A DNA stretch of 64,000 nucleotides. It comes from Escherichia phage phi G17. Below the pieces are notes generated by a model. That model had not been told where the DNA came from, ran no database searches, and saw only the letters and a program-made list of their open reading frames with translations. How positions within the stretch are numbered: the first letter of the stretch is position 1; each line of letters opens with the position of its first letter. The position numbers and the translations under genes are program-made. Below are positions 25,671 to 39,825 of the stretch, piece after piece. The stretch is from the sequence record NC_070870.1; one strand, given 5' to 3'.

Positions 25671-26063
25671 TTAAATTGTGCAACCACCACCGTCACATGT
25701 GTTGTTTTCTGCAAAGGAAGCCAGTGCCTTAGCAGTCTCCTCTTTCTCATGCAGTGCCTGACGTAGCAGGTAACCTTCTAATTCCCAAATCTTATTGAAT
25801 GCATTTTCATATGCATAACGACGACCTACCCACTCATCGTAGATAGCTGGGTCAACACAGGCAGATACGCCTTCAACTTTGAAGCCATTTTCCAGGATGA
25901 TAGTGCAATAGGTTACTAGGCTCAGATTAGCCAAATCATCTTCCGGGATTGCAGAAGGGTTAGCGAATCCAGACTTCACTGCATCAGCACCATTGAAATA
26001 GTAGACGCTTTTAATTTTAGCTTCGATTGATTCTTTACTTACTGTTGCCATTATTAGCCTCAT
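25671..26063 (-). CDS. hypothetical protein
   Basis: 130 aa ORF. Confidence 0.4.
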   Translation of the reverse strand: MRLIMATVSKESIEAKIKSVYYFNGADAVKSGFANPSAIPEDDLANLSLVTYCTIILENGFKVEGVSACVDPAIYDEWVGRRYAYENAFNKIWELEGYLLRQALHEKEETAKALASFAENNTCDGGGCTI

Positions 26064-26220: not shown

Positions 26221-26247
26221 ATAAAAAAGTCCCTCCGAAGAGGGACT
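26221..26247 (-). terminator. rho-independent terminator (minus orientation)
   Basis: On minus strand AGTCCCTC-TTCG-GAGGGACT followed by TTTTTTAT. Confidence 0.65.
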
Positions 26248-26407
26248 TAGTAGCTTTTAATAGATAGCTGTATTTGAGCATTATAGTCTGCTCATACTCA
26301 CACTCTTCTGTCGAAGAATATGTTTACAATATCTAGAGTGCCGGACTGTCTTACCGGCATTGTCTTTAGAGTGCTAAGCAATCAGGACTATGTTCTCTAT
26401 TAATGGG

Positions 26408-26481
26408 TGCCCACTACTGGATTTGAACCAGTGACTTTCCGATTATTAGTCGGTTGCTTTCCCCGTCTAAGCTAAGTGGAC
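26408..26481 (-). tRNA. tRNA-like gene, canonical cloverleaf, apparent anticodon AAU
   Basis: Minus-strand read GTCCACT-TA-GCTT-AGACGGGGA-AAGC-A-ACCGA-CTAATAA-TCGGA-AAGTC-ACTGG-TTCAAAT-CCAGT-AGTGGGC-A: 7-bp acceptor (one G-U), 4-bp D stem with GG in D loop, 7-nt anticodon loop with U33, 5-bp T stem with TTCAAAT loop; anticodon stem has one A-A mismatch. Confidence 0.45.
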
Positions 26482-26613
26482 ATAATAGGGTGAGTCATGC
26501 CAGGCTCTAACTGGCTCCTTCTTCGCAATCCTTACATACCCCTACATAATTATTGCGTTAAGCTTTTTTGTTTAAGTTTAAGTGAAGGTGTTCTTGCTGA
26601 CTCATAATACTTT

Positions 26614-26687
26614 CAATTCAGAGTAGCACTCACACAGGATTGTGCCTTTGAATACCGGGAAGTATAAACGAGTGCTACTTTGAATTG
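26614..26687. repeat. long inverted repeat (18-nt arms, 1 mismatch, 38-nt spacer)
   Basis: CAATTCAGAGTAGCACTC at 26614-26631 versus GAGTGCTACTTTGAATTG at 26670-26687. Confidence 0.7.
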
Positions 26688-26857
26688 GTTCCCCGTTTCT
26701 AATACACGGACGGGGACACTCCATGGTCGTTTGATAATCAGGACGACTCACTCCTGACTGAGGTTACGCTGTTAGGCGACCATCAGATACGCTTCTTCGT
26801 TTGCATTTATGTTATTGGTTCGTTTCTAAAAAACCGCATAATCGCTACGAAAACTAT

Positions 26858-26936
26858 CGGGGAGTGCACTAGCTCTGGGCCACGCTCGTGGACATCGACC
26901 TTCCTTCCACAGCTAATCAACTAATACACTCCCCTG
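26858..26936. repeat. inverted repeat (8-9 bp arms GGGGAGTG / CACTCCCC, about 60-nt spacer)
   Basis: CGGGGAGTGCACT at 26858-26870 and ACACTCCCCTG at 26926-26936; shares motif with the 27042-27115 repeat. Confidence 0.6.
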
Positions 26937-27041
26937 TTAGGAAGCTGCCAGGGATTCCACCTGGCTCCATCTGTTTTTAAAGTCACTCAGATATCGTCTG
27001 GACTTCCCATTGCCGTGGGATGTTGATAGAAATGAGAGGTT

Positions 27042-27115
27042 CTATCGGGGAGTACACTTACTCGACTGGTTAAACTATATCTATCCAGCTCCCCAGCAAA
27101 TGTACTCCCCGATAG
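27042..27115. repeat. perfect 15-bp inverted repeat with 44-nt spacer
   Basis: CTATCGGGGAGTACA at 27042-27056 and TGTACTCCCCGATAG at 27101-27115. Confidence 0.75.
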
Positions 27116-27289
27116 TCCATAATAGGAGGGAGGGGACGAATCCTCCCTTTATACCCTATGTTGCATGTAAGATCTAACAATTCGATGCTGTAGATAGCGA
27201 TACTATCCGACATTAAACCCAGCCCCTGGGGGCTTGTGTGATTATAATGCTCAACATTGAGCGGTTAGTTGATAAGGGATCTGAAGCCT

Positions 27290-27317
27290 TATCCCAAAGA
27301 TAATAACCTTTGGGATA
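27290..27317. repeat. perfect 10-bp stem / 8-nt loop hairpin
   Basis: TATCCCAAAG-ATAATAAC-CTTTGGGATA. Confidence 0.6.
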
Positions 27318-27530
27318 TAGCCTAAGATTCAGAAATGGCCCCTATATGGAGAGGCCATTGATTAACCCGAATGTTGCTTTACATTTGCTGTGATAACCAG
27401 TTCTTAAAATAGTCTGTCTGACGGATGGGGAGCCACCCCTAGCGTCAGTGCCATACGGCAAAGATTAAGTTAAGAAAGGTTATGATAGGAGTTCCTATCT
27501 CAAAGGATTCTGACAGAACCCTTCACGATA

Positions 27531-27932: not shown

Positions 27933-28433
27933 TTAACTACGTTTCAGGCCAGCGAACAGTGAAGGTTTCGCAGCAGGTTTCTCTGCTGGTTCTTCAACCT
28001 TAACTTCTTCCTGCACAGCTTCTTCGTGTGCATCTGGTTCAGTTGTTGCTTCTTCTTCTTCAGCAACTTCTTCTTCAGGTTCCGGCGTAGAACTCTCGTT
28101 CTGACCACCAACTGAGGTCGGGGCATCTACTTTCAGTTCCAGAGGTGCTCCCTCCTTTACCGATTCGGTAACAACTTGTTCACCAACCTCAGGTTCTGGG
28201 GTTGAGTCAACAGGACGATGTTTGGCTTCTTGTGGATTCTTGCGAGGACGGCGGGTCTTCTTCTCTACCACGGGTGGAGTGTCATCATCATGACCGACCT
28301 CTTCATTGATGCCAACGGAGGCAGTACCATCTGAATTCACCAGGATACTAATGTCCCCGGCAAGATTAACTTGTTCATTTACGTAAGCTTCAATAGCAGC
28401 TTCTACTTCGGACTGATTCAGGACGATTTGCAT
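27933..28433 (-). CDS. hypothetical highly acidic protein
   Basis: 166 aa; C-terminal half Glu/Pro/Val-rich low complexity with a short basic patch (KKTRRPRK). Confidence 0.45.
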   Translation of the reverse strand: MQIVLNQSEVEAAIEAYVNEQVNLAGDISILVNSDGTASVGINEEVGHDDDTPPVVEKKTRRPRKNPQEAKHRPVDSTPEPEVGEQVVTESVKEGAPLELKVDAPTSVGGQNESSTPEPEEEVAEEEEATTEPDAHEEAVQEEVKVEEPAEKPAAKPSLFAGLKRS

Positions 28434-28434
28434 A

Positions 28435-28989
28435 TTATGCCTTTATTAATTTAATGAGGTTCTGGAAAGCTGGGAGATTTACACCAGCGTGAATTGCACC
28501 GATTGCATCAGCTAAGTGCTCATTCTTATTTAGAAGTTTGCCTTTCTTATCTGTGAGCCAGTTGGCTTCTGGATAGATGGCATGAGCAGCACGAATCATC
28601 GTGTCTTTGGATGCAGTTTTATCTCCGACCAGTGCAAGTTTGTTTTCAATTGGGGATACTTCAAAGATTGGACAACCCAATGCACGGAATGCACCGATTA
28701 ATCCTACGCATACGCCATAGGATTTCATACCGTTAGCAGACTGAGAGCCTACTGGTACTTCTACGAATACTGCTTTAGCAGACCGTAACCATTCCTCACA
28801 ACCAAGAAACAAATCATAAGAGGCTTGTATATCTTTGGAGTTGGTTCGAACTTGCTTGTTGTGGTCAACTTCAGTTTGAACCAGTTTAAGTTCGACTTGC
28901 TCGAAGACGCCGGACTCAATGTCCAGCATCCCACGAGCTAATCCCCAATTGCGGAGACTAATGTCTGCACCGACAATTGGGATTTTCAT
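28435..28989 (-). CDS. putative RuvC-like (RNase H-fold) Holliday junction resolvase
   Basis: 184 aa; N-terminal IVGADISL and C-terminal EHLADAIGAIHAG resemble RuvC-family catalytic segments; adjacent to SSB and RecA-like genes. Confidence 0.4.
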   Translation of the reverse strand: MKIPIVGADISLRNWGLARGMLDIESGVFEQVELKLVQTEVDHNKQVRTNSKDIQASYDLFLGCEEWLRSAKAVFVEVPVGSQSANGMKSYGVCVGLIGAFRALGCPIFEVSPIENKLALVGDKTASKDTMIRAAHAIYPEANWLTDKKGKLLNKNEHLADAIGAIHAGVNLPAFQNLIKLIKA

Positions 28990-29786
28990 TAACGTTTACC
29001 GAACAGAGATTTACCACCTGCCGGAGCAGAACTTGTACTAGCACCTGGTTTAGGAGGCAAGCCACCTTTACCATTACCACCAGTAGAACCCTTGGTCTTA
29101 TCGCGGGTTTTACCTTTGTTCTTTTCCAGCCATGCTGCATAGAATACAGCCAGTTCTGGGGTCAGTTCTTTCTCAGCCTTCTCTGCTTCCTGAGCCTCGA
29201 CGACTGTGACCAGCAGTTCCGGGTGAAACACTTTCTGAATCTCGTTTACTTCACGAGTTTCACCAGAGTCAACGTAACCGTTGTCACCCTTAACCTGCTT
29301 AGCTTCCAGAACCTTTTCCAGAGCGAAGGTAACAGTCTGACCAACCAGATCAACTGGAACCATGACGGACTTGTTGGTTTCTGCTTTTAGGTCAAAGTCA
29401 TAGACTTTAACAATCTTCTCTTCGAAGTCTGCATCCGGTAGTTCATTACCAGTAGCCATCAACATCATGTCGTTAATGACAGTGTAACCAGGCAGGAAGT
29501 ATTCTTTACCGTTCTTCTCATAAGTCGGCTTATTGCCTTTAGCATTACCAGAAGTGAAGTACACCTGAGCACGGAACTCACCGGCACTATTGCCAGCAGA
29601 ACCTTTCAGGTCTTCAATGATTAACTGCATCCAGTCTGCACCAGAGTCTGCTTTACCTACGTAAGCCACTTTGACAGTACCGGTGTAGATATCAGATTCT
29701 TTAGCGCCGAAGCCACCACCACCAAGGGAGTCTTTAGCAGCTTCAACGTTTTGGGTTTTTTCTTTCAAGTTACCGAACAGTGACAT
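28989..29786 (-). CDS. ssb: single-stranded DNA-binding protein (N4 gp45-like)
   Basis: 265 aa, same length as recalled for N4 SSB; Gly-rich flexible C-terminal tail; position next to replication/recombination genes. Confidence 0.5.
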   Translation of the reverse strand: MSLFGNLKEKTQNVEAAKDSLGGGGFGAKESDIYTGTVKVAYVGKADSGADWMQLIIEDLKGSAGNSAGEFRAQVYFTSGNAKGNKPTYEKNGKEYFLPGYTVINDMMLMATGNELPDADFEEKIVKVYDFDLKAETNKSVMVPVDLVGQTVTFALEKVLEAKQVKGDNGYVDSGETREVNEIQKVFHPELLVTVVEAQEAEKAEKELTPELAVFYAAWLEKNKGKTRDKTKGSTGGNGKGGLPPKPGASTSSAPAGGKSLFGKR

Positions 29787-29827
29787 AATATTTTTTCCTA
29801 ATAAGTGATTAACAACCAGGCAAACGC

Positions 29828-30580
29828 TTAAGCGTAGTATTCAGCCAGATGGTCTAAAAGTTTTTGAGCGTCATTATCAATGTACGTCTCGGATTTATCG
29901 AACATACCCATCGGTGAACGTAAGCGTTTACCAACAGACTTCTTGGTTGGGCGAGTCTGGAATACATGCTTATAACCTAAGTCACGCTCTTCTTCAGTAA
30001 TTTCAAGCATCTTGTTGCCATACTTCTCCAGTTCCTTGATGTCTACACGCTCAGCGTAAACCACTGTAGAGAAATAAGCCTCAAGGCCATTGTTCTTCAG
30101 GGAGCCTTTGACCGGGATGAATGTTTTCATCACACCGGCAGCTTCATCGAGTTCATCTTTGGCATGGGCAGTAATGATTACTGGCTTACCAAACTTAACG
30201 ACTTTCTGTTGCAGCAGTACTTTAAAGAACTGTGCAAAGTCTCCCCAGGCTTTCTGGGTATTAGCAGATGGTAATACATACTGGGATTCCAGCATGTCCA
30301 TCATGAAGGTAGCAGAGTCGATAATGATGCCATCAACATCGTCTGCCATTTCACCACCTGGAGATGCAACATCGAATGCTTCCCAAATCTGATATGGGTC
30401 TTCAATGTTGTAGGTGTTGAACTTATTACGGAAAGGCAGTCGCTTACCTGCTTCTGTATTCAGATACAGCCAGCGTTCCTGGTTCCTGATATTACGCAGT
30501 GATGCTGATTTACCACTCGCTGAGAATCCTGCAATCAGGATTAGCTGAGTGTTCATATCGTTGGAGATTTCTTCGGACAT
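29828..30580 (-). CDS. RecA-like P-loop ATPase (Sak4-like recombination protein)
   Basis: 250 aa; Walker A GFSASGKS, Walker B-like GIIIDSAT; core-only RecA-size protein next to SSB. Confidence 0.5.
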   Translation of the reverse strand: MSEEISNDMNTQLILIAGFSASGKSASLRNIRNQERWLYLNTEAGKRLPFRNKFNTYNIEDPYQIWEAFDVASPGGEMADDVDGIIIDSATFMMDMLESQYVLPSANTQKAWGDFAQFFKVLLQQKVVKFGKPVIITAHAKDELDEAAGVMKTFIPVKGSLKNNGLEAYFSTVVYAERVDIKELEKYGNKMLEITEEERDLGYKHVFQTRPTKKSVGKRLRSPMGMFDKSETYIDNDAQKLLDHLAEYYA

Positions 30581-30636
30581 TATTTTTCCTCGTTTAGTTT
30601 AGGAGTCCTTCAAACCAAAGAAAGACTCCTGTTTGC

Positions 30637-32847
30637 TTATTTGCCAGCGAAGCGTTTAGCCACGGTGACCATTACGGTTGCATTCAATTCATCATCTGGT
30701 AATGGATTAGCCAGTTTCTTATTGAACGAGTAGACGGCTTGCTGTACTTGAGCAAAGTCCCAACCACTGTCTACTAATGCCAGTGCGTACTTAATCATTT
30801 GATTATTACGATTACCGGAGGCAATACGACCAGCGAACCAACGCTCCAGATTGTCTAACGACTGTACTTCCTTCATCTGGTTCTGGAACTGTTCGTTCTT
30901 ACTGGTACGAGGAATAAAGTCACGTACATCCAACAGATTCGCATCAAGGTTGTAATGATAGGAACCAGTTTCACAGGACATCCACTTCTTGGCTCGTTGG
31001 TTAGCAGACTCATCCGTTTCGAATGGTAGCCAAGCCATAACGTTATTCATGAACTCTTTGTATTCCACAGTGTCGAGGTGCAACTCATAGTTCATTGGGA
31101 TAATCAGACGGAAGCGGTTCTCTTCGTCGGAATGACGCTTAGTGGTATAGGTCATGAACTTATATTCCTTCATCAGTTCATGGCACGTATGCAGTGGTAC
31201 TCCACCATCACAGTCAATAACAATCATGTTAAATCCTGGAATCACGTTCTCTTCAGAACGATGTCCATTCTTCATGTGATGGTTTACCCAGTGCATACCG
31301 GGAGCTTGGGTTAATACATGTAGCTGGTCAAACGGTACACGTTCACCAACATAGTCATAAGCAAAGCTATCACTATAAGCCACCAGCATCTCATTGGTGT
31401 CAGTCTCTTTCAGAGTCTCACCACGGAAGAACTCAATACCTTCATTGAATGTCTTCTTAATAATGATGTGCTGTTTGTAACCCCATGCTGTAGCAAGAGT
31501 CATCATCTCATTACGAGCTGCATTGCCACTCTTATAGAACGGCAGTGACTCCAGTAAGTCAGCATGAGTCACTTCTTTGCCTACGGAAGCAATGTACTTA
31601 GCCAGCTTAACATAGGCTTTCTCACGATTAAGGATAGTCTGGAAAGCTGCCCCGGATTCTTCTACGAGCAGGATTGCTTGTTTAAGATGAGCCATCTCAA
31701 TGAATGAACTCTGGTCAACAAACGCCAGTGCACCTGCCAGCTTAAGAGCTTTGAAGTAACGGTGGGAGATTTCAGCTTTACGAATTTCTTCGTGGTCTGC
31801 CATAGCTTCTGCTTGTTTCTCACAATCAATTTTGTAAGTAATCAGAGCAATACCCACTGCATCTTCCACAATCATCTTAAAGCCAAACAGGTTTGGGTCA
31901 GCCAGACTATGAAAGTGGTTAGCCCACTTGCCAAGAGACTGAACGTTATCCTGCTTAATCAGGTTACGGTAGATTTCTTCCGGGGTCAGCGTTGCATGTG
32001 CTCGCTTGTCTAAGTGCCCAATGGCAAACAGACAACGACGTGCATACCCCGTATCAAGGAAGTCATAGAACTGGTCTTCAGTCTGACCACCATCCAGCAG
32101 CTTACTCGGAGTACCGAATAGCAGCAGGTTAGCGGGAGTCTTACCATCCAGTTCTTCACCACGTACACTTTCAGCAGTGTTCTTGGTTAACTTCTGTTTT
32201 ACTTTCCCTTGGTCATACAACTCAAGGAACAGGTTAAGTACTTCAACGTTGGCAATGAGGTTGGAACCAATCTCATCAATCTGTAAGTTGATGCCACCAC
32301 AACCAGCCATAAGCAGTTTGTGACGAAGTTGCTTTACAGCAGGTGCTGTACCAGAGTCGAACGTGAACGGGAATGCCCCAGCACGCTTATACTCTGCTTC
32401 AACTTTATCGAACTCTTCTTGCTGGTCAGTACCCTGACGTGCAGAACGTTCGTTAGCAATCTTCCACAGACGGTCATTTGCAATGACGGGCATGGTGTCT
32501 TCCATAAAACGTTTACGGAAGCCAGTCATGAATCCGTCTTCAATGATATTTACCGAGTGACCTTTACCGAAACCAGATGTAGCCAACGCCATAGCGTAGA
32601 TGTTTACTGGCAGGTCACCACGGTCTTTAGTTACGATGGTTGCACCCATGCAGGATGCCATTTTAGCCAAGAAGTAGGCCACTTCGACACGGAAAAATCC
32701 CCGGTCGTTATTCTGGGTTTTATTGCAGAGCACATCTACGATTTCTTCAATCGCCGGATGGTGCACTACTCCGGTAAGGTCAATACTCATGATGGAAAAT
32801 ATCTCTCTCTTTGTTTGCAAATGGACGCGACAGGGCAATATAAACAA
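30637..32847 (-). CDS. DNA primase (AEP/prim-pol type, N4 gp43-like)
   Basis: 736 aa; C-terminal region has IVIDCD (motif I hhhDhD), RHS and RFRLIIP segments typical of archaeo-eukaryotic primase domains; start uncertain (MSIDLTG at residue 20 possible). Confidence 0.55.
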   Translation of the reverse strand: MFILPCRVHLQTKREIFSIMSIDLTGVVHHPAIEEIVDVLCNKTQNNDRGFFRVEVAYFLAKMASCMGATIVTKDRGDLPVNIYAMALATSGFGKGHSVNIIEDGFMTGFRKRFMEDTMPVIANDRLWKIANERSARQGTDQQEEFDKVEAEYKRAGAFPFTFDSGTAPAVKQLRHKLLMAGCGGINLQIDEIGSNLIANVEVLNLFLELYDQGKVKQKLTKNTAESVRGEELDGKTPANLLLFGTPSKLLDGGQTEDQFYDFLDTGYARRCLFAIGHLDKRAHATLTPEEIYRNLIKQDNVQSLGKWANHFHSLADPNLFGFKMIVEDAVGIALITYKIDCEKQAEAMADHEEIRKAEISHRYFKALKLAGALAFVDQSSFIEMAHLKQAILLVEESGAAFQTILNREKAYVKLAKYIASVGKEVTHADLLESLPFYKSGNAARNEMMTLATAWGYKQHIIIKKTFNEGIEFFRGETLKETDTNEMLVAYSDSFAYDYVGERVPFDQLHVLTQAPGMHWVNHHMKNGHRSEENVIPGFNMIVIDCDGGVPLHTCHELMKEYKFMTYTTKRHSDEENRFRLIIPMNYELHLDTVEYKEFMNNVMAWLPFETDESANQRAKKWMSCETGSYHYNLDANLLDVRDFIPRTSKNEQFQNQMKEVQSLDNLERWFAGRIASGNRNNQMIKYALALVDSGWDFAQVQQAVYSFNKKLANPLPDDELNATVMVTVAKRFAGK

Positions 32848-33839
32848 CGTTTAACCTGCCCCTCCACGACTTTGATAGCACCCTTGCCACCTTTTTCAGC
32901 CATGAAGATACGAGCAGATGCCATATCATCAAAGTTTTTGGTACTTCTGGCTCCGGGCATATCTACCTTAGAAGCATCAGAGAAGTATTTAAACTGTGGC
33001 TCTGTTCGCCACAACTCCTCGTCAGTACATTCAGGGATTTCCTCTTCAGGTGCATCCCAGTACTTTTCGATTAAGTGAATCTTCTCTTCCACCCAACGTT
33101 CAGTCTTCTCAGCAGACAGCAACGGAATATCCTTATGCATAATACGATTAGCAGGATAGTTCGGATTGCTATTAGCCATGTGTTTCATGAAGTCGGTGAA
33201 GATGTAGTTAATACGGATTACATCCTCGGTAATGATGTCGTTGTGAATCCAACGGTACAAGCTGCCTTGCATCTTATGTTCATCATCACGGGAACCAGCA
33301 ACCCAGGAATAGGTTGAGGTAGACTTGAAGTCTTGTAACAGACCTTCCGTTACGATGTCGAACTTACCACCGATGGTCCAACCCTTAACTACCTTGGTTC
33401 CACGTTGTTCAATGTAGATTGGGATAAGGTCTGGGTTAGCAGCAAAGTCTGCTTTGGTTGGGTTAATGACTACTGCATCAATTACTCGCTGAGGATAACC
33501 CAGCTTCTTCAATGCAGTCTTATGACCTAGCTTCCAGGCTTTCTCGATAGAGTCATGTAAGCCAGTTCCCATTGATGTGGAGACGAAATCCATAACATCA
33601 ATAGACTGGTCACTAAAATCTACACGATGTTTCATGACTATTTGCTTAAGTGGTTTAAGCAATGTAGTAGCAGACAGATACTTAGGATTGTCTACGTAAT
33701 CATACTCATCATGTAATAGCCATACAGCCAGAGCCAGCGAGACATCATGATTGTTGGTTATCTTCATTAGTAAGTAATCCTGTAACGATAAATATCTGCC
33801 CACCTGATAGATTGGAAATGTAGTTCTCCTGGAAAGCAT
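32787..33839 (-). CDS. PD-(D/E)xK-type nuclease with C-terminal Cys cluster (Cas4/RecB-like exonuclease)
   Basis: 350 aa; C-terminal C...CLYCPVASIC (CxxCx5C) pattern as in Fe-S containing Cas4/AddB nucleases; start overlaps primase so true start may be internal. Confidence 0.5.
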   Translation of the reverse strand: MLSRRTTFPIYQVGRYLSLQDYLLMKITNNHDVSLALAVWLLHDEYDYVDNPKYLSATTLLKPLKQIVMKHRVDFSDQSIDVMDFVSTSMGTGLHDSIEKAWKLGHKTALKKLGYPQRVIDAVVINPTKADFAANPDLIPIYIEQRGTKVVKGWTIGGKFDIVTEGLLQDFKSTSTYSWVAGSRDDEHKMQGSLYRWIHNDIITEDVIRINYIFTDFMKHMANSNPNYPANRIMHKDIPLLSAEKTERWVEEKIHLIEKYWDAPEEEIPECTDEELWRTEPQFKYFSDASKVDMPGARSTKNFDDMASARIFMAEKGGKGAIKVVEGQVKRCLYCPVASICKQRERYFPS

Positions 33840-34240
33840 GTGTACGTTTTACAATGGTTTATGTACTCATACTCAATCTTCTTCCACTTACACATGAAGG
33901 ATGGTCTTTCATTACTGTAAACCCAATCGGTACTGGATTCTTCCAACTTATCTATTTCACCACTATCCTTAGAATCAATATAAGCTTTAACAAGTAGACG
34001 ATTAGCGTAATGAACTAGCTTCTCACAGTCATAGACTGTAGTGTTTCCAGGTTTACCATTACCCATACGGGCAGCAGCATTTCGCCATAGAGCCTTAAAG
34101 GCACAACCTTCATCGAAGGTCATGCCCAGTGCTTGGATAATATCTTCACACTCTGCTTGGTATGGCTCTTGCTCTTTCCGTTGGGGATTCTTAATCGGAA
34201 CTACATAGTAGTTATTAAGACCACCGGAGAGCTTAGTCAT
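33767..34240 (-). CDS. hypothetical protein (DUF3310-like N-terminal region)
   Basis: 157 aa; N-terminus NNYYVVP...AECEDIIQALGMTF...GNAA...KLVHYANRLL resembles the phage DUF3310 family from memory. Confidence 0.35.
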   Translation of the reverse strand: MTKLSGGLNNYYVVPIKNPQRKEQEPYQAECEDIIQALGMTFDEGCAFKALWRNAAARMGNGKPGNTTVYDCEKLVHYANRLLVKAYIDSKDSGEIDKLEESSTDWVYSNERPSFMCKWKKIEYEYINHCKTYTCFPGELHFQSIRWADIYRYRITY

Positions 34241-34545
34241 TATTCCCCCTTGGGAACCATGTTTGCTTGGAACTCAGGTTCAGACATCAGGCCCAGGTTG
34301 TTGATAGACAGATAAACAATATCTTTCAGGTCAACCGAGGTGTCGAAACGCTGGTCCAGACTAATCTTCAGAGAGTGATTGGCACGGGCCAAATCTTTAT
34401 AGGTCACATGAGGTTCGGCAGTGAGCAGCATTGTATTCATGGTAAGCAGGGAACCATCATCAGCTTTAGGAAGCTGGAAGATTACCTGTGCTGCTACCAT
34501 CCAATGATATTTTTTGACGACGGTTTCTTTAGTACTTTTAGTCAT
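34240..34545 (-). CDS. hypothetical protein
   Basis: 101 aa ORF, start overlaps upstream stop. Confidence 0.35.
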   Translation of the reverse strand: MTKSTKETVVKKYHWMVAAQVIFQLPKADDGSLLTMNTMLLTAEPHVTYKDLARANHSLKISLDQRFDTSVDLKDIVYLSINNLGLMSEPEFQANMVPKGE

Positions 34546-35513
34546 GCGAATGCCTTTTGAATTGTTTGATTAACTTCTTCAGGGGTAGCGTGATTTGGAA
34601 TCTCAATCTCGTTAGCCCACGTTGGGTAGAACAAGGACAGTTCCCCACCCAAACCAACTTCTGGATGAGCAATATCGGGATGGTCTTGCCAGTTAACGGC
34701 TTCAACCAAATGCTTGTTCGTGTACTGCAAGGTATCCATGTTGTCACGAATCATGAAGTACTGAGCATCATGAATGTGAATACTAGGACGTATATCTAAT
34801 CTGAACTCACTGGTTCTGACTTTACGCATAAATTCTGAGCCAGCACGGTTATTCAGTAGACACCAGCTTTGCCCTAAGGCATTGCCAGCAGTTCTACCTT
34901 CAGCCTCTGCTTCATATGGAGTCTTACATGTCCCACGTAAAACCTGAGCCAGTAAAGGAGTACGCACTCTTAAACCAAATGCAGCAGTTACATAACCAGT
35001 CTTAGCAGCCTCGTCTAGCTTAGCCTGAACCCAGGCATCACTAACTGTATACATCTCATGGTATCTGGACTCGATTAACTTAGCCTTCTCTTCAGAGAAG
35101 CCACAGTTTTTCATCAAGCCCATGTAAGTCCCACCGTAGGTCAGTAGGAAAGTGGGTGCTTTTGACTCACTACGTAAAGCCTTATACTTTTTCTGTATAG
35201 AGTTGATGCCTTCCACAGAGTCATCAATATCCGGCATTTGTTCACCGAAATAAAATTTAGCTCTGAGCGAATGCCCGTCGAACCCGTCAGTATAGACGCG
35301 CAATTTATTAGGGTCTTTGGTTGTTAGGGCTGATATACGATCCTCTAAGGACGCAAAATCGAGGCCACAGAACAACCAACCTCCCTCATAGTTAAAGCAT
35401 TCTGATACTTGTTCCTGCATGCCATATTTACTAGCCAATTGCATTAACTCGTCATAATCATCCAGGGTTACTCTATCTTTTATGCTAACTAATTTATTTA
35501 ATAAGTCCTGCAT
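34542..35513 (-). CDS. DNA polymerase (family A) C-terminal fragment, carrying motifs A, B and C
   Basis: GLDFASLEDRI (motif A, D-Y/F-S-Q-I-E-L-R), K-x3-F-x3-YG (SKAPTFLLTYGGTYMG, motif B), IHIHDAQ (motif C); own strong SD AGGAGAAGG 8 nt upstream of ATG at 35513. Confidence 0.8.
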   Translation of the reverse strand: MQDLLNKLVSIKDRVTLDDYDELMQLASKYGMQEQVSECFNYEGGWLFCGLDFASLEDRISALTTKDPNKLRVYTDGFDGHSLRAKFYFGEQMPDIDDSVEGINSIQKKYKALRSESKAPTFLLTYGGTYMGLMKNCGFSEEKAKLIESRYHEMYTVSDAWVQAKLDEAAKTGYVTAAFGLRVRTPLLAQVLRGTCKTPYEAEAEGRTAGNALGQSWCLLNNRAGSEFMRKVRTSEFRLDIRPSIHIHDAQYFMIRDNMDTLQYTNKHLVEAVNWQDHPDIAHPEVGLGGELSLFYPTWANEIEIPNHATPEEVNQTIQKAFA

Positions 35514-36150
35514 TACGAAGTACCTTCTCCTGTTCAACCATGTTATTAGCTAATACATAGGTAATAACTGCATTCATAACAGTATCTAGATCTCTATCTA
35601 CTAGGATTTCCACTCTCTTACCTAAATGGGTAATTCTACCTACCCATTTATTTTTCGACTTACTGTAACTAACATAAGGAGTTGTACTCCAAACCCTTTT
35701 GTTAGTTTGTTGGGTACTCCTATTTGCCCATCTACAATTGTCTGGAGAGTAGTCTTTGTAGGCGTCAATCCTGTCAATACTCAGTCCTATTTCATAGCCG
35801 GAAGATAATGCCCAATCTCGGAAATTTTCATATGAATTTTTCCACTCATCACAAACATTTATGCCTTTGGCCCCATATTTGTAATAAGTGGAACATTTTT
35901 CATTATGACAGCGGTCTAGCATACCGTAGTAAACCTTGTATAGAGGCTCTTTTGAACGCCCATCCTTGTAATTACGAGGGCATTCTTTGTACAAGCAACC
36001 ACAGCTTCTTGTATGACCACTTTTTAATTTTTGAATATTGACCACAGTGGTATTACCACAGTCACACAGACATACCCAATGCTTTGCATAGTATTTGTCT
36101 TTGTGGCTGAATCTCACTACGGTCAATCTATTAAATTTCTTTCCAATCAT
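35494..36150 (-). CDS. HNH homing endonuclease (HNH_3-type with AP2-like DNA-binding domain)
   Basis: CDCG...SCGC zinc-binding cysteines, LSIDRIDAYKDYSPDNCRWANRSTQ signature, C-terminal WVGRI...GKRVEIL AP2-like segment; ATG overlaps the TGA of the upstream polymerase fragment (ATGA). Confidence 0.8.
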   Translation of the reverse strand: MIGKKFNRLTVVRFSHKDKYYAKHWVCLCDCGNTTVVNIQKLKSGHTRSCGCLYKECPRNYKDGRSKEPLYKVYYGMLDRCHNEKCSTYYKYGAKGINVCDEWKNSYENFRDWALSSGYEIGLSIDRIDAYKDYSPDNCRWANRSTQQTNKRVWSTTPYVSYSKSKNKWVGRITHLGKRVEILVDRDLDTVMNAVITYVLANNMVEQEKVLRNAGLIK

Positions 36151-37964
36151 TTGGCACCACCAATTGTATTTTTCAGGGACTGGATTAATGTATCCAGCTT
36201 GTCCCTGTTTGGCAAGTAACAACTGGGTGGGGCTTCGAAGCATTTCTTAATCTTCTTGGCGTATTTAGAACCGGATGGAATTGTTTGTAGATTGGGCTCT
36301 GAAGCCGATAGCCTACCGGAGACTGTGCCTCCCAGATTGAGGTTGCCGAACAGATAGTGCCAGCCATCCGGCCCCGGTTGGGCATTCCTGAAAGCTGGTA
36401 TAAAACTAGTGATAATCTTATCCACGAGTTTATAGTCGATAAGTGCATTGAGCAGTTCCTTAACATCTTCACTCTGCGTATGTGTACGCAGTGCTTTAAT
36501 AGTGTCACCGTCAGTAGCAGGTTGCTTGCTCTTAGTAAGACCAAGAACCGGTAAGCCAATGTAATCAAATAACAGTTTCTGTAACTGTGGACCGGAGTTA
36601 GGATTAAACTCTATGTCACAATCAGCCAGTGTTACTTGCTTCTTCTTGAGCTTAGCATTCTTATCGTCTACCCATTCCTGACGAAGCGTCAGGGTGAAGT
36701 TCTTCATGAGCTTAGACTCACGAATAGTTTTCAGAGCCTGGTTCCTGTCAGTTTCCATCTCTTCAGCTACTTGGTTAACGGTTTCCATATTCATGGGCAT
36801 ACCGGTTAACTGCATCTGAATAATGTCTTCACAGGCTGGTTTAAAGATGTTGTTGTAAACATCCAGTTGGTCATCAGCAATGAGAGTATCCCAGTGCTTC
36901 TCGTAGGTGTACCACGTACACAAACCATCAATGAGGTTGTAACGTAACAGTTGCTCATTAGGAATAAGACAAATGTCTTTAATATCATCCTGAGCATAGT
37001 TACCGGCATACTCCTGAGCCTGGTCTTTCAGACTAAGGTGATTACCAGCACAACTGTTAGTAGCCAAGTAGGTGATTAACTTAGTACAGTCCCAATTACG
37101 CAGCATGATTTCCATGCCATGTAGTAAGCCTTCTGTATCAATCAGGTTATCCATGAATAGCTGATAGATAAGTATGTACACGTCATAGCTAATGTTGTGA
37201 TACATCTGCCGTTGAGTGTACTTAATGAAGAACTCACGTAACAGGTTACGAACAATATCGTTCCTGTTAATGCGCCCATAGGGTGCTTCAGTAGCCCCCT
37301 TAATCGGCTCGTAGTCCACATTAAAGGCTATGCCTTGTGTCTTACTCCAACAGAACGTAATCGTTCCTATACCTGCGTTATAGTGCTTTAAACCGAAGGA
37401 TTCGATGTCTATAGCCAGAGGCTTATTCATCTCAAGCAACTGGTCTAACCAGGCTTTAATCTTTTCGGGTGTGTCTGGATAGGCTTCAAACTCAATGATT
37501 CCCTGCCCAGGTTCAGCATACTGTCCTCGAATGTGGTTAAGTAATGCATCCATACCCTGAGCAATCTTGGCTCTCACTACAGGTGGGTCATAAAAGACCT
37601 GTCTGTAGTTAGGTGTATAGATAACCTTCTGCTTACCCCATACTGAGTCACAAACATAGCCGAGGTTAGCCTCTGCTTTAGCTTCTTTAGTCAGTATTTT
37701 GAAGTAGTCAGAATCGGTACAGATAATGTACTGAGTCTCTGCGTCATCCAGTACTTGTTGCAGTTCCTGCTGTATGAACTCTTTAATCTCCCTTGCAGGA
37801 GTCTTCTTCTTGCCTGGGGCAGAATGAAGTTCAAGGAAGATGAAATCTTCCATGCTTAGGTCATAAGGCAGCAGGTAGGTTTTAATCATCTCCTCCCTTC
37901 GGATTTGATGACCGAGGATAGCAATAGGATACTTACCCGTATCCTGAGAGGTGATGTAACGCAT
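36147..37964 (-). CDS. DNA polymerase (family A) N-terminal fragment: 3'-5' exonuclease plus N-terminal polymerase region
   Basis: Exo I LAIDIESFG, Exo II HNISYDVYIL, Exo III RYNLIDG; FNPNSGPQLQKLLFDYIGLP and SGRLSASEPNLQTIP match Pol I family segments; ORF stops just before motif A. Confidence 0.8.
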   Translation of the reverse strand: MRYITSQDTGKYPIAILGHQIRREEMIKTYLLPYDLSMEDFIFLELHSAPGKKKTPAREIKEFIQQELQQVLDDAETQYIICTDSDYFKILTKEAKAEANLGYVCDSVWGKQKVIYTPNYRQVFYDPPVVRAKIAQGMDALLNHIRGQYAEPGQGIIEFEAYPDTPEKIKAWLDQLLEMNKPLAIDIESFGLKHYNAGIGTITFCWSKTQGIAFNVDYEPIKGATEAPYGRINRNDIVRNLLREFFIKYTQRQMYHNISYDVYILIYQLFMDNLIDTEGLLHGMEIMLRNWDCTKLITYLATNSCAGNHLSLKDQAQEYAGNYAQDDIKDICLIPNEQLLRYNLIDGLCTWYTYEKHWDTLIADDQLDVYNNIFKPACEDIIQMQLTGMPMNMETVNQVAEEMETDRNQALKTIRESKLMKNFTLTLRQEWVDDKNAKLKKKQVTLADCDIEFNPNSGPQLQKLLFDYIGLPVLGLTKSKQPATDGDTIKALRTHTQSEDVKELLNALIDYKLVDKIITSFIPAFRNAQPGPDGWHYLFGNLNLGGTVSGRLSASEPNLQTIPSGSKYAKKIKKCFEAPPSCYLPNRDKLDTLIQSLKNTIGGAK

Positions 37965-37973
37965 ATCTTTACC

Positions 37974-38504
37974 TTAGAAAATCAGATGAGAAGCTGCATA
38001 GTACTCAATGGAAGGTAGAATCTTCTCATACTGTTTGATTGCCATAGCATCACCAGCAAGAGTCCAAGCCGCTTCACGAGTACGCTGTAGCCCTTTGTAC
38101 TGACCAGTCTGGTCTTGTGCTACCAGACATTCAGGCAGAGCATCACGTACATCCTGATAGGACATACAACCACGAACCAGTCGATATACAGTCTGGTTCA
38201 CAAGATGTACTTCCATAATCAGACGACTGGAGGCTTTCAGATACTTGTCCATTGCAGGCCATAGTTCTGGATTAAGCGTCAATCGTTCACCGTAGGTTGG
38301 AGGCCTAGTAGCGTTAGAACGCTGATAGAACTCCCCTTGGTAAAGAAATCCAGCCGATACATCTACACCATTGATACGGTCGTTCTTATCAATGATACCG
38401 TTTAACACACCATCAAGACGAACCAGTTCTGCTAAGAACAGGTGCTTGACTATCTCACTACTATTGGCAACCTGACCAATAGTCGTTGAACCAATCTGAG
38501 GCAT
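37974..38504 (-). CDS. hypothetical protein
   Basis: 176 aa ORF between helicase and polymerase. Confidence 0.45.
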   Translation of the reverse strand: MPQIGSTTIGQVANSSEIVKHLFLAELVRLDGVLNGIIDKNDRINGVDVSAGFLYQGEFYQRSNATRPPTYGERLTLNPELWPAMDKYLKASSRLIMEVHLVNQTVYRLVRGCMSYQDVRDALPECLVAQDQTGQYKGLQRTREAAWTLAGDAMAIKQYEKILPSIEYYAASHLIF

Positions 38505-38514
38505 ATACCCTCCC

Positions 38515-39825
38515 TTAGAAAGTTAGACCACCATACTTACTAGCAAGATTGCCATAGAACACTACACGCTTACGAGCACGAGACACAGCGACGTAAAGCA
38601 GTCGAGCAACCATATCAGGTTGGCGACAGCTTGAGAGGTCATCTGCATCAATGAATATTGTGTCGTAAGTAGAGCCTTGTGATTTATGAACAGTACATGC
38701 ATGAGTAGCACGAAGGTCTGGAATGGTTTCTTTAAGACGGAAATATGGTTCCCAGTTCTTCTCTTTACCTAACCACTTAACCAAACGATTGAAGTAGTCT
38801 GGGTCGGTAGGAATTGGGACTTCACTAACAATACCACCATAACCAAGGTCTAGGGTACTATCACGGACTTCTAGTTCCAGGTCGCCTGTAACTTTAATCA
38901 TGCGAGTACTACTATCTTGGTCAATGAGTTTTACGTCTTGTTCGATAGACAGACGGTCTTCCACACCTAAGCGAACGGCTGAGTTAGAGACTAATTGTTC
39001 GCCAATGGAGTATTCTCCCACGTAGCCGTTAGCTTCACGAATGTAGTTATTGTAATTGATAACCTGGTCATTGGTGTAAGCAACAATACGGCTATTGGTT
39101 GGTTGAGTGAAGTGACTGAGAACCAGTTTCTCCATCTCTTCTCCTTGTACCCAGTCAATAATTCCTGGGATACATTTAATAGGCAGGAAGCCTGTCTTAC
39201 CTTCCACCGTATCACGCAATTGCTGGTGCAACGCTTTGAGTTCCGGTGTATCGGTACGCATCTGTTCAGTCAGATAGTGTGTTGGGATATTGCCTGCATA
39301 CACTGGAGACTTATTCTCTTTAACAGGTAGAAGCTGAGAAGCATCACCTACGAATACCAGTTTGCACTGGTGAGTACCTTCACGAGCATACTTAAGTAAC
39401 TGACGGTCAATCATGGATGCTTCGTCTACGAAGATGATTTTGTTCTTCTTAATGGCGAACGATTTAGAAGGTACGACGTTAGCCTCACCAGTCTTAAAGT
39501 CATTCTTAACAATCAATCCCTGGAAGGAATGATAGGTAGAGGTTGGACGTCCAGTAGCTTGAGCCAGAACTTCAGCAGCCTTGTTCGTGGTCGCAGTCAT
39601 TACGACTTCATTATACAGAGGCTTGGTTCCCATCAGAGAGCAAGTTTCCATATATGCAGGCATAGTGTCATCAATGAGGTGCGACATCAGGAATGTCTTA
39701 CCAGTTCCCCCAGGGCCACTGATTCCAAATTCTGAGGCATTAGGGTCGAGCAGGAAGTCGAAGAACTCCTTCGCAACCGCTTCTTGCCCCTGGTTCAATG
39801 GGGCTTTGGTAGGTTTGGAAAACAT
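38515..39825 (-). CDS. SF1 DNA helicase (Dda/RecD-like)
   Basis: Walker A GPGGTGKT, Walker B FVDEASM, motif V/VI HACTVHKSQGSTYDT and AVSRARKRVVFYG. Confidence 0.8.
   Translation of the reverse strand: MFSKPTKAPLNQGQEAVAKEFFDFLLDPNASEFGISGPGGTGKTFLMSHLIDDTMPAYMETCSLMGTKPLYNEVVMTATTNKAAEVLAQATGRPTSTYHSFQGLIVKNDFKTGEANVVPSKSFAIKKNKIIFVDEASMIDRQLLKYAREGTHQCKLVFVGDASQLLPVKENKSPVYAGNIPTHYLTEQMRTDTPELKALHQQLRDTVEGKTGFLPIKCIPGIIDWVQGEEMEKLVLSHFTQPTNSRIVAYTNDQVINYNNYIREANGYVGEYSIGEQLVSNSAVRLGVEDRLSIEQDVKLIDQDSSTRMIKVTGDLELEVRDSTLDLGYGGIVSEVPIPTDPDYFNRLVKWLGKEKNWEPYFRLKETIPDLRATHACTVHKSQGSTYDTIFIDADDLSSCRQPDMVARLLYVAVSRARKRVVFYGNLASKYGGLTF

Follow-up and report, generated by a model that had tools for sequence, protein, structure and literature searches.

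Five consecutive genes on the minus strand of Escherichia phage phi G17 raise the question of what kind of unit they form. They lie between positions 28435 and 33839 of the 64,000-nucleotide stretch of record NC_070870.1 analysed here (hereafter the window). A sequence-only reading had taken them for a self-contained toolkit for recombination-dependent replication and restart, made up of a RuvC-like resolvase, an SSB, a core-only RecA-like ATPase, an AEP-type primase and a Cas4-like nuclease, the last one with an Fe-S cluster and perhaps an additional part in anti-defence. The N4 counterparts of the five genes have been under study since the 1980s, and the last genes of the block have recently been tied to the evasion of bacterial immune signalling (bioRxiv 10.64898/2026.06.04.730250).

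Origin and layout of the gene block

The five ORFs are present at this place and the motifs quoted for them were all recovered, i.e. GFSASGKS in the ORF at 29828..30580, IVIDCD in that at 30637..32847 and CX2CX5C in that at 32787..33839. The limit of the module at 28435 was retained, while that at 33839 was set 72 nt too far, the true start of the exonuclease gene being at 33767. The primase ORF was likewise too long (true start 32790), both starts having been misplaced because the longest ORFs were taken. Domain, fold and motif evidence taken together upheld the five domain assignments, that of the primase as AEP-type with less certainty.

The window comes from a member of Gamaleyavirus, i.e. 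a G7C-like phage within the N4-like Schitoviridae. The window is about 95 % identical in DNA sequence to published phages bearing the same five gene annotations, and the whole 5.4 kb shares 92-96 % DNA identity with G7C, PhAPEC5/7, Moonfish and IME11, in whose records a primase, an exonuclease, an SSB, a Sak4-like protein and a RuvC-like resolvase are annotated. As the five ORFs matched PHROG families with E-values from 1.6e-41 to 0 and as 62 phage records covered at least 80 % of the 5.4-kb stretch, they are genuine genes and not chance ORFs. The five-gene block itself was already known, with identical names in the RefSeq records of near-identical phages, and finding it is as such ordinary and adds nothing new.

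Amino acid identities to N4 gp42, gp43, gp44, gp45 and gp46 were 71, 81, 77, 60 and 68 %, respectively, and the gene order is the same; judged by these comparisons, the five genes are one-to-one orthologues of N4 gp42-gp46, whose names are used below. They are likely to constitute the distal half of a conserved replication operon of middle genes (gp37-gp47) in an N4-like (Gamaleyavirus) phage, a judgement that applies jointly to the identity of the operon, the orthology and the mechanism proposed at the end of this text. The upstream half (33767..39825, minus strand) encodes gp41-like and gp40-like proteins, a family-A DNA polymerase whose coding sequence is interrupted by an HNH gene (both halves being matched by Pfam DNA_pol_A), a gp38-like protein and a gp37-like SF1 helicase of the RecD/Pif1 type (38515..39825, matched by AAA_30, UvrD_C_2 and PIF1), in the gene order of G7C and N4. 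The genes of the operon overlap or abut, and strong terminator-like hairpins on the minus strand were found only at the flanks of the block (39860-39843 and 26248-26227). Genes, order and strand are the same as in N4, G7C, PhAPEC5/7, IME11 and Moonfish, and only mobile insertions differ: in G7C, gp41 and gp42 are separated by an HNH gene and gp47 is followed by two additional genes, all absent from the window, whereas in the window, and not in G7C, an HNH gene interrupts the DNA polymerase.

This layout bears directly on the proposed self-containment. The five activities that a cycle of resection, annealing, priming and resolution would need are encoded side by side; however, the block is one half of an operon that provides a DNA polymerase and a second helicase upstream, and N4 replication also requires host functions, as indicated by the title of a 1986 study by Guinta et al. 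and by the way it is cited in PMC4496689. Regarding an anti-defence role of the Fe-S nuclease, we found no link between gp42 and anti-defence, the available data concerning gp46, gp47 and Acb4 instead (bioRxiv 10.64898/2026.06.04.730250). A self-contained recombination-dependent replication and restart toolkit with such a nuclease thus appears improbable.

Proteins gp42 to gp45

The gp42-like protein (32787..33767, minus strand; 326 aa) starts at M25 of the longest ORF according to its homologues and to the G7C annotation, its gene overlapping the upstream one by 1 nt. It matched phrog_2139 ('exonuclease') at 7e-152 and, weakly, phrog_1706; the Pfam match to PDDEXK_1 was weak (0.004, 17.5 bits, under the 22-bit cut-off), and the search against PDB chains gave no sequence-level match. 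The AF2 model (pLDDT 89.6) was, in agreement with the Cas4-like nuclease proposed earlier, a PD-(D/E)XK (Cas4/RecB) fold: its best Foldseek match in the PDB was SSO0001, the Cas4 of S. solfataricus (4ic1; E = 4.5e-7, TM-score 0.6 on target), and further matches were RecE, human EXO5, AdnAB and RecB, with lambda exonuclease and MGME1 also in the list. The fold equally fits a flap or end processing in ordinary replication, of the Dna2, EXO5 or MGME1 kind.

Among 50 homologues of gp42, H71, D137, D146-x-K148 and Q167xxxY171 are invariant, and so are four cysteines (C247, C308, C311 and C317), the last three of which form the CX2CX5C motif at the C-terminus (C-LY-C-PVASI-C). The same D...D-x-K...QxxxY core followed by CX2CX5C is present in Cas4, AddB, Dna2 and EXO5, where the first ligand of the cluster precedes the nuclease core and so creates the 'iron staple'. 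By contrast, gp42 has no N-terminal cysteine, and its fourth cysteine, C247, sits after the nuclease core, 61 residues ahead of the triad. A predicted [4Fe-4S] cluster is plausible for gp42, with the fourth cysteine placed non-canonically.

Rather than resecting DNA for recombination, gp42 may be a replication-maturation nuclease that removes 5' flaps or primers as Dna2, EXO5 and MGME1 do. The DNA polymerase of the N4 type has no 5'-3' exonuclease domain (PMC2784036), hence lagging-strand maturation requires some 5' nuclease. Such a role would also suit the 4-nt overlap (ATGA) between the gp42-like gene and the helicase-primase gene, as well as the presence of human EXO5 and MGME1 among the fold matches, beside Cas4 and RecB-type nucleases. 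The same list, however, contains the resection enzymes RecE, lambda exonuclease, AdnAB and RecB, and the gene co-travels with those of Sak4, the SSB and the RuvC-like nuclease; moreover, Guinta and co-workers reportedly found in 1986 that N4 uses the 5'-3' exonuclease of the host Pol I. We therefore regard a flap-removing gp42 as possible, with the balance tilted somewhat against it.

The gp43-like protein, orthologous to N4 dns (30637..32790, minus strand; 717 aa, with M20 of the longest ORF as start by homologues and G7C annotation), matched phrog_2135 ('DNA primase') at E = 0. Its reading as an AEP-type primase agrees with the C-terminal part, which comprises an AEP-like primase core (~30901..31293) and PriCT-1 (30673..30837), but it overlooked the N-terminal two-thirds of the protein, predicted to be a DUF3987/MCM-like ATPase, i.e. 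a helicase (~31471..32673; all on the minus strand). PriCT_1 (PF08708) was detected in the window protein (5.6e-7, 29.5 bits for a cut-off of 21.1) and in 34 of 38 diverse family members; DUF3987 matched 18 of these 38 (best 3.3e-8), with 0.037 for the window protein. Invariant residues of the helicase part include A70xxxxG75-K76-G77, D172-E173 and R251-R252, position 77 being a G where a P-loop usually has S/T. AEPs are marked by motif I (hhhDhD), motif II (sxH) and motif III (hD). In the primase part, the DxD motif (D526xD528), D593 and, upstream of motif I, H504 are nearly invariant, while H553, at the motif-II position in 'TTKRH', is S in some members.

No Pfam AEP family matched any of the 38 diverse members, and comparison of gp43 with the PDB yielded neither a sequence match nor a significant fold match. 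The best PDB fold matches were MCM subunits, all weak (E from 0.06), for a model whose helicase part is poor (mean pLDDT 62.9 overall, ~80-90 in the C-terminal part). Fold matches in BFVD, at 1e-7 to 1e-2, comprised VapE, VirE-like, PriCT-2, DUF3987 and primase/polymerase proteins, and hhalign of gp43 with the N-terminal domain of a VapE-type phage primase-helicase gave a probability of 83 % (E = 9e-6). For N4 dns, which is essential for replication, a published HHsearch assignment gives an SF6 helicase of the DUF3987 family fused to an AEP domain at the C-terminus (PMC4889955). Based on these similarities, gp43 is predicted to be more than a primase: an MCM-like helicase (DUF3987) would precede the AEP-type primase and PriCT-1. 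Like the known fusions of AEP/Prim-Pol with D5, VapE or DUF3987 helicases, it would unite both activities in a single chain bearing PriCT-1 and a DxD primase motif; unlike the fusions of phages and mobile elements, it has the helicase first and the primase last, a reversed order already remarked for N4 dns (PMC4889955).

The gp44-like protein (29828..30580, minus strand; 250 aa) belongs to the Sak4 or 'core-only RecA' ssDNA-annealing ATPases, as the earlier reading had suggested. It matched AAA_24 at 6.4e-11 (42.9 bits, cut-off 27) and phrog_124 ('Sak4-like') at 8.4e-50, carries its Walker A motif at aa 18-25 and lacks the RecA C-terminal domain. Pairwise BLASTP with the characterised Sak4 of HK620 (HkaL) aligned the Walker A region (E = 1e-6) and a C-terminal SPMGMF..IDND..YY region (E = 6e-6), and G23-K24-S25, D88 and also H139 are invariant across the Sak4s of the window, N4, Ab09 and HK620. 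Sak4, which occurs in N4-like phages, anneals ssDNA in an ATP-dependent manner and is stimulated in this by the cognate SSB, as found for HK620 Sak4 (PMC5928155). As in the modules of HK620 and PA73, the ATPase gene adjoins an SSB gene, and the ATPases share the C-terminal motif along with Walker A and Walker B. The partner here is nevertheless an N4-type SSB and, by sequence, no canonical OB-fold SSB; likewise, gp44 is part of the replisome operon of a lytic phage and theirs of a lambdoid recombination module of temperate phages.

An accessory replisome ATPase, e.g. a loader or organiser of the gp43 helicase, and not a recombinase, could also occupy a gene lying between those of the helicase-primase and the SSB. 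AAA_24 is a broad P-loop family, gp44 carries an extra segment of ~30 aa relative to HK620 Sak4, and its BLAST-level relatives, in the rows listed out of 476 matching records, are confined to N4-like phages, with genomes of ~66-79 kb except for one weak unclassified record. Nevertheless, such a role is quite unlikely in view of the direct similarity to a biochemically characterised Sak4, around Walker A as well as in the C-terminal motif, the strength of the phrog_124 match and the explicit naming of N4-like phages as Sak4 carriers (PMC5928155). An annealing protein of the Sak4 type is retained for gp44 below.

The gp45-like protein (28989..29786, minus strand; 265 aa, ending in ...GGKSLFGKR) is an N4-type SSB, the assignment as SSB being upheld by a match to phrog_743 at 8.6e-89 and by 60 % identity to N4SSB over the full length, with the same size and genomic position. 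In N4SSB, Y75 serves in ssDNA binding and S260, K264 and K265 constitute the activating region (PMC2784036). The tyrosine equivalent to Y75 is kept in all four aligned SSBs; S260 and K264 are also kept in gp45 and K265 is replaced by Arg, giving a tail KSLFGKR versus KSLFGKK in N4. In N4, replication cannot do without N4SSB, which also takes part in recombination and, through its C-terminus, activates sigma70-RNAP at late promoters (PMC4496689, PMC2784036). Its tail contacts the beta' subunit of the host RNA polymerase, switching late genes on. This second function of the N4 orthologue, as a late-transcription activator, had been missed in the earlier synthesis, as had the orthology of the RuvC-like gene to Bes1 of Pseudomonas phage Ab09.

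gp46, gp47 and immune evasion

The gp46-like protein (28435..28989, minus strand; 184 aa) matched phrog_159 ('RuvC-like Holliday junction resolvase') at 1.6e-41, in line with its earlier assignment. The window protein itself had no Pfam match, PF02075 being present in six listed homologues, and the top five matches of a PDB profile search were all RuvC, at weak E-values (0.013-0.48). The catalytic tetrad of RuvC is D7/E66/D138/D141 in E. coli and D7/E70/H143/D146 in T. thermophilus. In gp46 a D/E/H/D tetrad (D9, E77, H158 and D161) is intact, and an alignment of 24 homologues, Ab09 Bes1 among them, shows no change at D9, E77, E157-H158 and D161. This conservation points to a family of DNA-cutting enzymes, which could serve both DNA processing and immune evasion; gp46 is a putative four-way-junction resolvase.

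Ab09 gp60 (Bes1) is orthologous to gp46, with 42 % identity (E = 2e-47) and the same catalytic residues. Together with Bes2 (gp61), it has been implicated in the evasion of CBASS and Thoeris; bes1 or bes2 singly restores resistance to several signalling systems, the signals being neither bound nor cleaved, and a mutant deleted for gp58-61 together with the final 17 codons of the SSB gene grows well without immunity (bioRxiv 10.64898/2026.06.04.730250). A resolvase role is therefore non-essential in Ab09. Evasion of CBASS and Thoeris in Ab09 is the only phenotype reported for the gp46 family in the literature that we found. Since the full RuvC tetrad is kept, Bes1 included, conservation argues that this activity is likely to depend on DNA cleavage.

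Just outside the five-gene block, a gp47-like protein of the Bes2 family (27933..28433, minus strand; 166 aa; phrog_7641 at 1.2e-54) is built of a small domain at the N-terminus, a linker that is acidic (net charge -19) and disordered, and a tip with the C-terminal sequence ...KPSLFAGLKRS. Its N-terminus can be aligned with N4 gp47 and Ab09 gp61 (Bes2), and it shares with the latter the pattern of the N-terminal domain, the acidic linker and the SLF tip, BLASTP alone being non-significant. An iterative profile search recovered 86 gp47-like ORFs, and among the 86 loci with both genes the gp47-like one comes directly after the RuvC-like one in essentially every case. The junction between SSB and RuvC-like genes, by contrast, varies, serving as an insertion site in 27 of 91 loci. 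In Ab09, gp58 and an Acb4-Sequestin fusion lie between SSB and Bes1, whereas SSB and gp46 abut here. In the window, an Acb4-family protein (N4 gp48-like; 25671..26063, minus strand; 130 aa; PF13876 at 2.8e-26) is instead encoded 2 kb further along, in the variable part that separates the module from the virion RNA polymerase gene. Its identity is 48 % to N4 gp48 and 42 % to the Acb4 half of Ab09 gp59. N4 acb4 activates Panoptes (bioRxiv 10.64898/2026.06.04.730250).

The homology to Bes1, the architecture shared with Bes2, the single-gene effects in Ab09, the near-constant adjacency of the pair next to a variable junction and the Acb4 homologue along the same stretch would all suit gp46 and gp47 being primarily an immune-evasion unit, which keeps CBASS and Thoeris from triggering or acting, and not replication or recombination machinery. 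Such a unit might remove a sensed DNA structure or retune phage development. Against an exclusive reading of this kind, an invariant RuvC tetrad denotes a DNA-cutting enzyme able to do both; the phenotypes come from one Pseudomonas phage, and the authors of the preprint themselves propose that the Bes genes may act via phage development and not as inhibitors (bioRxiv 10.64898/2026.06.04.730250). We give this reading close to, though short of, an even chance.

The one new point of this analysis, and its one testable lead, concerns the tips of gp45 and gp47. The tip of gp47 (KPSLFAGLKRS) resembles that of the SSB (KSLFGKR), with the same 'SLF', and the two co-vary across 85 N4-like loci: the paired tips are, for example, SLFAKPQS with SLFAKPQS, TTSLF with T(T)SLF, DDPF with DDPF, DLF with DLF and SIF with PIF. 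We tentatively propose, while considering it rather unlikely, that the gp47-like (Bes2) protein mimics the C-terminal tail of the SSB and competes or cooperates with it for one shared partner, which would make the end of the replication module a dual-use unit for replication and immune evasion.

Division of labour and significance for N4-type phages

Building on the gene identities, folds, conserved catalytic residues and orthology described above, we infer the following division of labour among gp42-gp46. As a replicative helicase-primase, gp43 would unwind DNA with its MCM-like DUF3987 ATPase and prime with its C-terminal AEP-type domain and PriCT-1. Its partners would be the family-A DNA polymerase encoded upstream and the gp45 SSB, the latter coating the exposed single strand. 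The Cas4-fold gp42 would digest 5' ends, converting genome termini or breaks into 3' single strands or trimming lagging-strand 5' flaps. With its cognate SSB, gp44 (Sak4) may anneal complementary strands, e.g. the terminal repeats of the linear genome, generating concatemers and new primer-templates, and the RuvC-like gp46 would then cut the resulting branched DNA ahead of packaging. Finally, by orthology with N4SSB, the C-terminal tip of gp45 is expected to switch the host RNA polymerase onto late promoters, which would couple late expression to replication.

The recombination-primed step of this scheme is put forward by inference; the literature searched contained no experiment on recombination-dependent replication in N4-like phages. 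In T4, this mode of replication involves UvsX, UvsY, gp32, gp46/47 and endonuclease VII. The logic would be the same here, with a nuclease, an SSB, a RecA-family protein and a junction cutter acting on a linear, terminally redundant genome, but none of the proteins are orthologous, and Sak4 anneals strands where UvsX forms a strand-exchange filament (PMC5928155).

What makes the N4-type replisome unusual is the reversed fusion of an MCM-like helicase with an AEP primase, together with an SSB that has diverged and also activates transcription and a nuclease of Cas4 fold whose fourth cysteine is displaced. If gp47 does mimic the SSB tail, its competition with that tail could shift the expression of late genes or the contacts of the replisome, providing a mechanism by which Bes2 would aid the evasion of Thoeris and CBASS without binding their signals. 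For Bes2, the mechanism of which was left unexplained in the preprint (bioRxiv 10.64898/2026.06.04.730250), the tip motif shared by the SSB and gp47 thus offers a concrete hypothesis.

An N4-like gene set within a longer replication operon

At the DNA level, the 5.4-kb stretch carrying the five consecutive minus-strand genes (28435-33839) was matched by 92 phage records, with coverage of 80 % or more in 62 of them. Gamaleyavirus genomes matched best, namely G7C, PhAPEC5/7, Moonfish, IME11 and NAN33P5 (92-96 % DNA identity). As the window's first 25 kb matched the same phages and contained a 3456-aa virion RNA polymerase ORF, the window was assigned to a G7C-like, N4-like E. coli phage of the Schitoviridae. 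Collinear counterparts of the five genes, named gp42 to gp46 after their N4 orthologues, were found on a single strand in G7C and N4. Amino-acid identities of gp42, gp43, gp44, gp45 and gp46 were 71, 81, 77, 60 and 68 % to N4, and 42, 47, 52, 36 and 42 % to Pseudomonas phage Ab09, respectively. The five-gene module is already known.

All five ORFs and the three motifs quoted in the sequence-only reading were recovered from the window, and its five domain calls (RuvC-like, SSB, Sak4/RecA, primase and Cas4-like nuclease) were correct. Only AAA_24 and PriCT_1 exceeded the cut-offs when window proteins were searched with Pfam and NCBIfam (nothing with NCBIfam). The integrated interpretation of that reading was right in part, the proposal of a self-contained module being one element that failed. 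Upstream of gp42 and on the same strand lie gp41- and gp40-like genes, the family-A DNA polymerase gene, gp38 and an SF1 helicase gene, and strong terminator-like minus-strand hairpins were found only at 39860-39843 and 26248-26227. Because of these upstream replication genes and flanking terminator-like hairpins, we regard the five genes as the distal half of a single, long replication operon that also includes the polymerase and the SF1 helicase.

The polymerase gene itself (34542-37964, minus strand) occurs as two ORFs (36147..37964 and 34542..35537) split by an HNH endonuclease gene (35494..36150; phrog_374 at 6.7e-63), the break falling between the PNLQ(T/N)IP motif and motif A. A group I intron was rejected as the cause, since Rfam detected no intron and the halves are separate ORFs with the HNH gene between them. 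Among 71 matching records, the same arrangement was present only in U1G, PGN829.1 and ST4 (five records with GenBank/RefSeq duplicates); the G7C polymerase gene, unlike that of the window, is intact.

The exonuclease gp42 and the helicase-primase gp43

The starts of two genes had to be revised, the longest possible start having been used for ORFs of 350 and 736 aa. PHROG alignments began at residues 25 and 22 of these ORFs, respectively, homologues measured 326 aa (gp42) and about 717 aa (gp43), and the G7C annotation agreed; on this basis, gp42 was placed at 32787..33767 and gp43 at 30637..32790 (minus strand). The two genes overlap by 4 nt, and gp42 overlaps its upstream neighbour by 1 nt.

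For gp42, PHROG matches were obtained to an 'exonuclease' family (7e-152) and to a Cas-associated family (6e-12), the Pfam match to PDDEXK_1 was sub-threshold only, and a profile of 17 homologues matched no PDB sequence. An AlphaFold model derived from 50 homologues was confident (pLDDT 89.6). Its top match among solved structures was SSO0001 (entry 4ic1; E = 4.5e-7, TM-score 0.6 on target), which we take to be the [4Fe-4S]-containing Cas4 of Sulfolobus, followed by RecE, human EXO5, AdnAB, RecB, MGME1 and lambda exonuclease. Residues H71, D137, D146-x-K148, Q167xxxY171, C247, C308, C311 and C317 were invariant among 50 gp42 sequences. The predicted Cas4-like fold, already proposed from the sequence, is thus supported by fold matches together with invariant core residues and cysteines. 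C308, C311 and C317 reproduce the exact CX2CX5C of Cas4, AddB, Dna2 and EXO5, in which the first cluster ligand lies N-terminal to the nuclease core. Unlike these proteins, gp42 lacks an N-terminal cysteine; the fourth invariant one, C247, comes after the core, and a putative Fe-S cluster of unusual topology is plausible from this pattern.

Regarding gp43, Pfam identified PriCT-1 in all close homologues and 34 of 38 diverse ones, and DUF3987 over N-terminal residues 40-260 in 18 of the 38 (best 3.3e-8). The primase call holds for the PriCT-1 primase part, but it had missed the N-terminal DUF3987 helicase part. The latter keeps the P-loop A70xxxxG75-K76 (G77 replacing the usual S/T), the Walker B pair D172-E173 and the arginine pair R251-R252, and the primase part keeps D526xD528, D593, R559 and R561. 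No AEP domain was recovered with Pfam (17, then 38 diverse homologues), among PDB sequences (family profile) or among PDB folds. The AlphaFold model of the whole protein (mean pLDDT 62.9) was of poor quality over the helicase part, and Foldseek returned no significant PDB match, the weak ones all being MCM subunits. Among predicted viral structures, fold matches comprised VapE, VirE-like, PriCT-2, DUF3987 and primase/polymerase proteins. The N4 orthologue, dns, has been described as an MCM-related SF6 helicase (DUF3987) with an atypically C-terminal AEP domain, essential for replication (Kazlauskas et al. 2016, PMC4889955).

A tblastn search of phages with the primase domain retrieved essentially N4-like genomes only, plus one weak Clostridium phage match. 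Using hhalign, gp43 residues 502-626 were aligned with the N-terminal domain of this VapE-type phage primase-helicase (probability 83 %); as that domain bears no Pfam label, the match is no proof of AEP membership. The primase domain was also searched with HMMER against 1.84 billion protein representatives. Among the best 150 matches, all proteins long enough displayed the helicase-then-primase order, the others being fragments, so no link to other families emerged from this search. Among the 38 scanned homologues, those of about 1000 aa carry inteins: P0369, P0374, P0400 and P0502 contain intein or Hint plus LAGLIDADG domains, each found in one or two of the 38 members.

Sak4, SSB, the RuvC-like nuclease and the adjacent variable stretch

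The gp44 product (29828..30580, minus strand) matched AAA_24 above cut-off and phrog_124 'Sak4-like' at 8e-50. It aligned directly with Sak4 of HK620, a biochemically characterised protein (PMC5928155), over the Walker A segment (E = 1e-6) and the C-terminal SPMGMF..IDND..YY motif (E = 6e-6), which supports its identification as a Sak4/core-only RecA protein. Walker A, Walker B and the TAH motif were invariant in the Sak4 alignment including both proteins. A PDB sequence search with the single gp44 sequence gave nothing useful, and tblastn of Sak4 against phages retrieved essentially N4-like genomes only, plus one weak unclassified fecal-phage record. N4-like phages are among the listed Sak4 carriers, and Sak4 strand annealing is ATP-dependent and stimulated by the cognate SSB (Hutinet et al. 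2018, PMC5928155).

The SSB call was likewise valid for gp45 (28989..29786, minus strand), an orthologue of N4SSB, although a role in late transcription had been overlooked: N4SSB is essential for replication and acts in recombination, and its C-terminus activates E. coli sigma70 RNA polymerase at late promoters (PMC4496689, PMC2784036). The tyrosine needed by N4SSB for ssDNA binding is kept in gp45, as are S260 and K264 of the activating region, K265 being replaced by Arg (KSLFGKR vs KSLFGKK in N4). Since the N-terminus (MSLFGNLK...) also starts with the motif, SLFG is present at both ends of gp45; M..[LMFI]F lies close to the beginning of the longest ORF in 57 of 92 SSB-like ORFs of the compared loci.

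The gp46 product (28435..28989, minus strand) matched phrog_159 'RuvC-like resolvase' at 1.6e-41, its five best PDB profile matches were all RuvC (weak but consistent), and PF02075 was present in some homologues. D9, E77, H158 and D161, which match the RuvC catalytic tetrad, were invariant across 24 homologues. Given these profile matches and the tetrad, the RuvC-like assignment is upheld and the resolvase reading is structurally sound, while the recorded phenotype is of another kind. With 42 % identity (E = 2e-47), gp46 is related to Ab09 ORF60, i.e. Bes1 of a June 2026 preprint (bioRxiv 10.64898/2026.06.04.730250), in which the gene following Bes1 is named Bes2 (Ab09 gp61). There, resistance to Thoeris and CBASS is restored individually by Bes1, by Bes2 and by an Acb4-Sequestin fusion; neither Bes1 nor Bes2 binds or cleaves the signals. 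In the literature covered, immune evasion is the sole phenotype on record for the gp46 family.

According to the same preprint, the variable stretch between the module and the virion RNA polymerase gene is an anti-defence hotspot, and N4 acb4 triggers Panoptes defence. In the window this stretch holds gp47, small ORFs of unassigned function, one tRNA and an Acb4-family gene (25671-26063, minus strand; 130 aa, PF13876). The encoded protein shares 48 % identity with N4 gp48 and 42 % with the Acb4 half of Ab09 gp59, and on account of these identities and PF13876 it is likely a cyclic-nucleotide sponge (anti-CBASS Acb4). Over about 1.3 kb (26250-27530), no ORF exceeds 60 aa. Beyond one tRNA (26404-26482, minus strand; Ile, anticodon AAT by ARAGORN; 61.6 bits with Rfam), the search for RNA genes in this interval gave only sub-threshold matches (e.g. 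permuted-tmRNA-like, E = 0.004). A comparable gap occurs in N4; in Erwinia phage phiEaP8, five tRNAs occupy the position. Two perfect hairpins resembling bidirectional terminators (stems of 10 and 9 bp) were also observed: one at 25298-25321, separating the virion RNA polymerase gene from the leftward genes that converge on it, the other at 26227-26248, just downstream of the tRNA.

A tail motif shared by SSB and gp47

The gp47-like gene (27933..28433, minus strand) directly follows gp46, and its product displays the N-terminal pattern common to N4 gp47 and Ab09 Bes2. BLASTP of gp47 against Ab09 gp61 was not significant alone; only this pattern, the tail and iterative profile searching revealed the relation. 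In the gp47-like protein, an acidic linker rich in proline (net charge -19) leads to the C-terminal end KPSLFAGLKRS, similar to the SSB tip KSLFGKR, which is encoded within 28989-29030 (minus strand).

Tips were compared in a sample extended to eight further genera and 80 IMG/VR loci, with counts made over 85 loci. SLF occurred in the SSB tip of 79 loci and in the gp47-like tip of 62, and the hydrophobic-Phe pair [LIP]F in 85 and 80, respectively; among 1128 other ORFs, just 5 had SLF within their last 16 residues. Both tips co-vary within genomes (SSB/gp47-like: QQSLFAKPQS/PVSLFAKPQSN, KPTTSLFA/KTPTSLFN, TGDDPFTM/TEDDPFANFD, QSDLFL/VLDLFS and KKSIFGKKA/RRPIFGNLKKPE). Same-genome tip similarity reached 20.5, against 17.95 ± 0.49 for shuffled pairs, and was above all 5000 shuffles, a control that leaves shared ancestry in place. 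Of the 86 loci having both a RuvC-like and a gp47-like gene, essentially all have the two side by side, and insertions at the SSB-RuvC junction were present in 27 of 91 loci.

In N4 (NC_008720, about 12050-12115), the annotated gp47 3' end reads ...KNQYKPNLLCLQV, and another frame of the same DNA reads ...VQAKPSLFAGLKR*, i.e. the gp47 tail conserved in G7C and the window; a frameshift near the gp47 end, whether real or a sequencing error, is probable in the N4 record. In Klebsiella phage Tribble and Pectobacterium phage CB1, the RuvC-like gene is followed by a longer gene (227-262 aa), annotated 'RusA-like' in RefSeq in the case of Tribble. In these lineages the tips of SSB and of the post-RuvC protein have both switched, to DDPF or DLF, the DDPF tip resembling the bacterial SSB tip DDDIPF.

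From these comparisons, we read gp47/Bes2 as carrying a putative SSB-tail-like interaction tip. The SLF tip motif is not essential in Ab09, as an Ab09 mutant without both tips is viable. The tail motif shared by SSB and gp47 is the sole new element, and it suggests a testable mechanism for Bes2.
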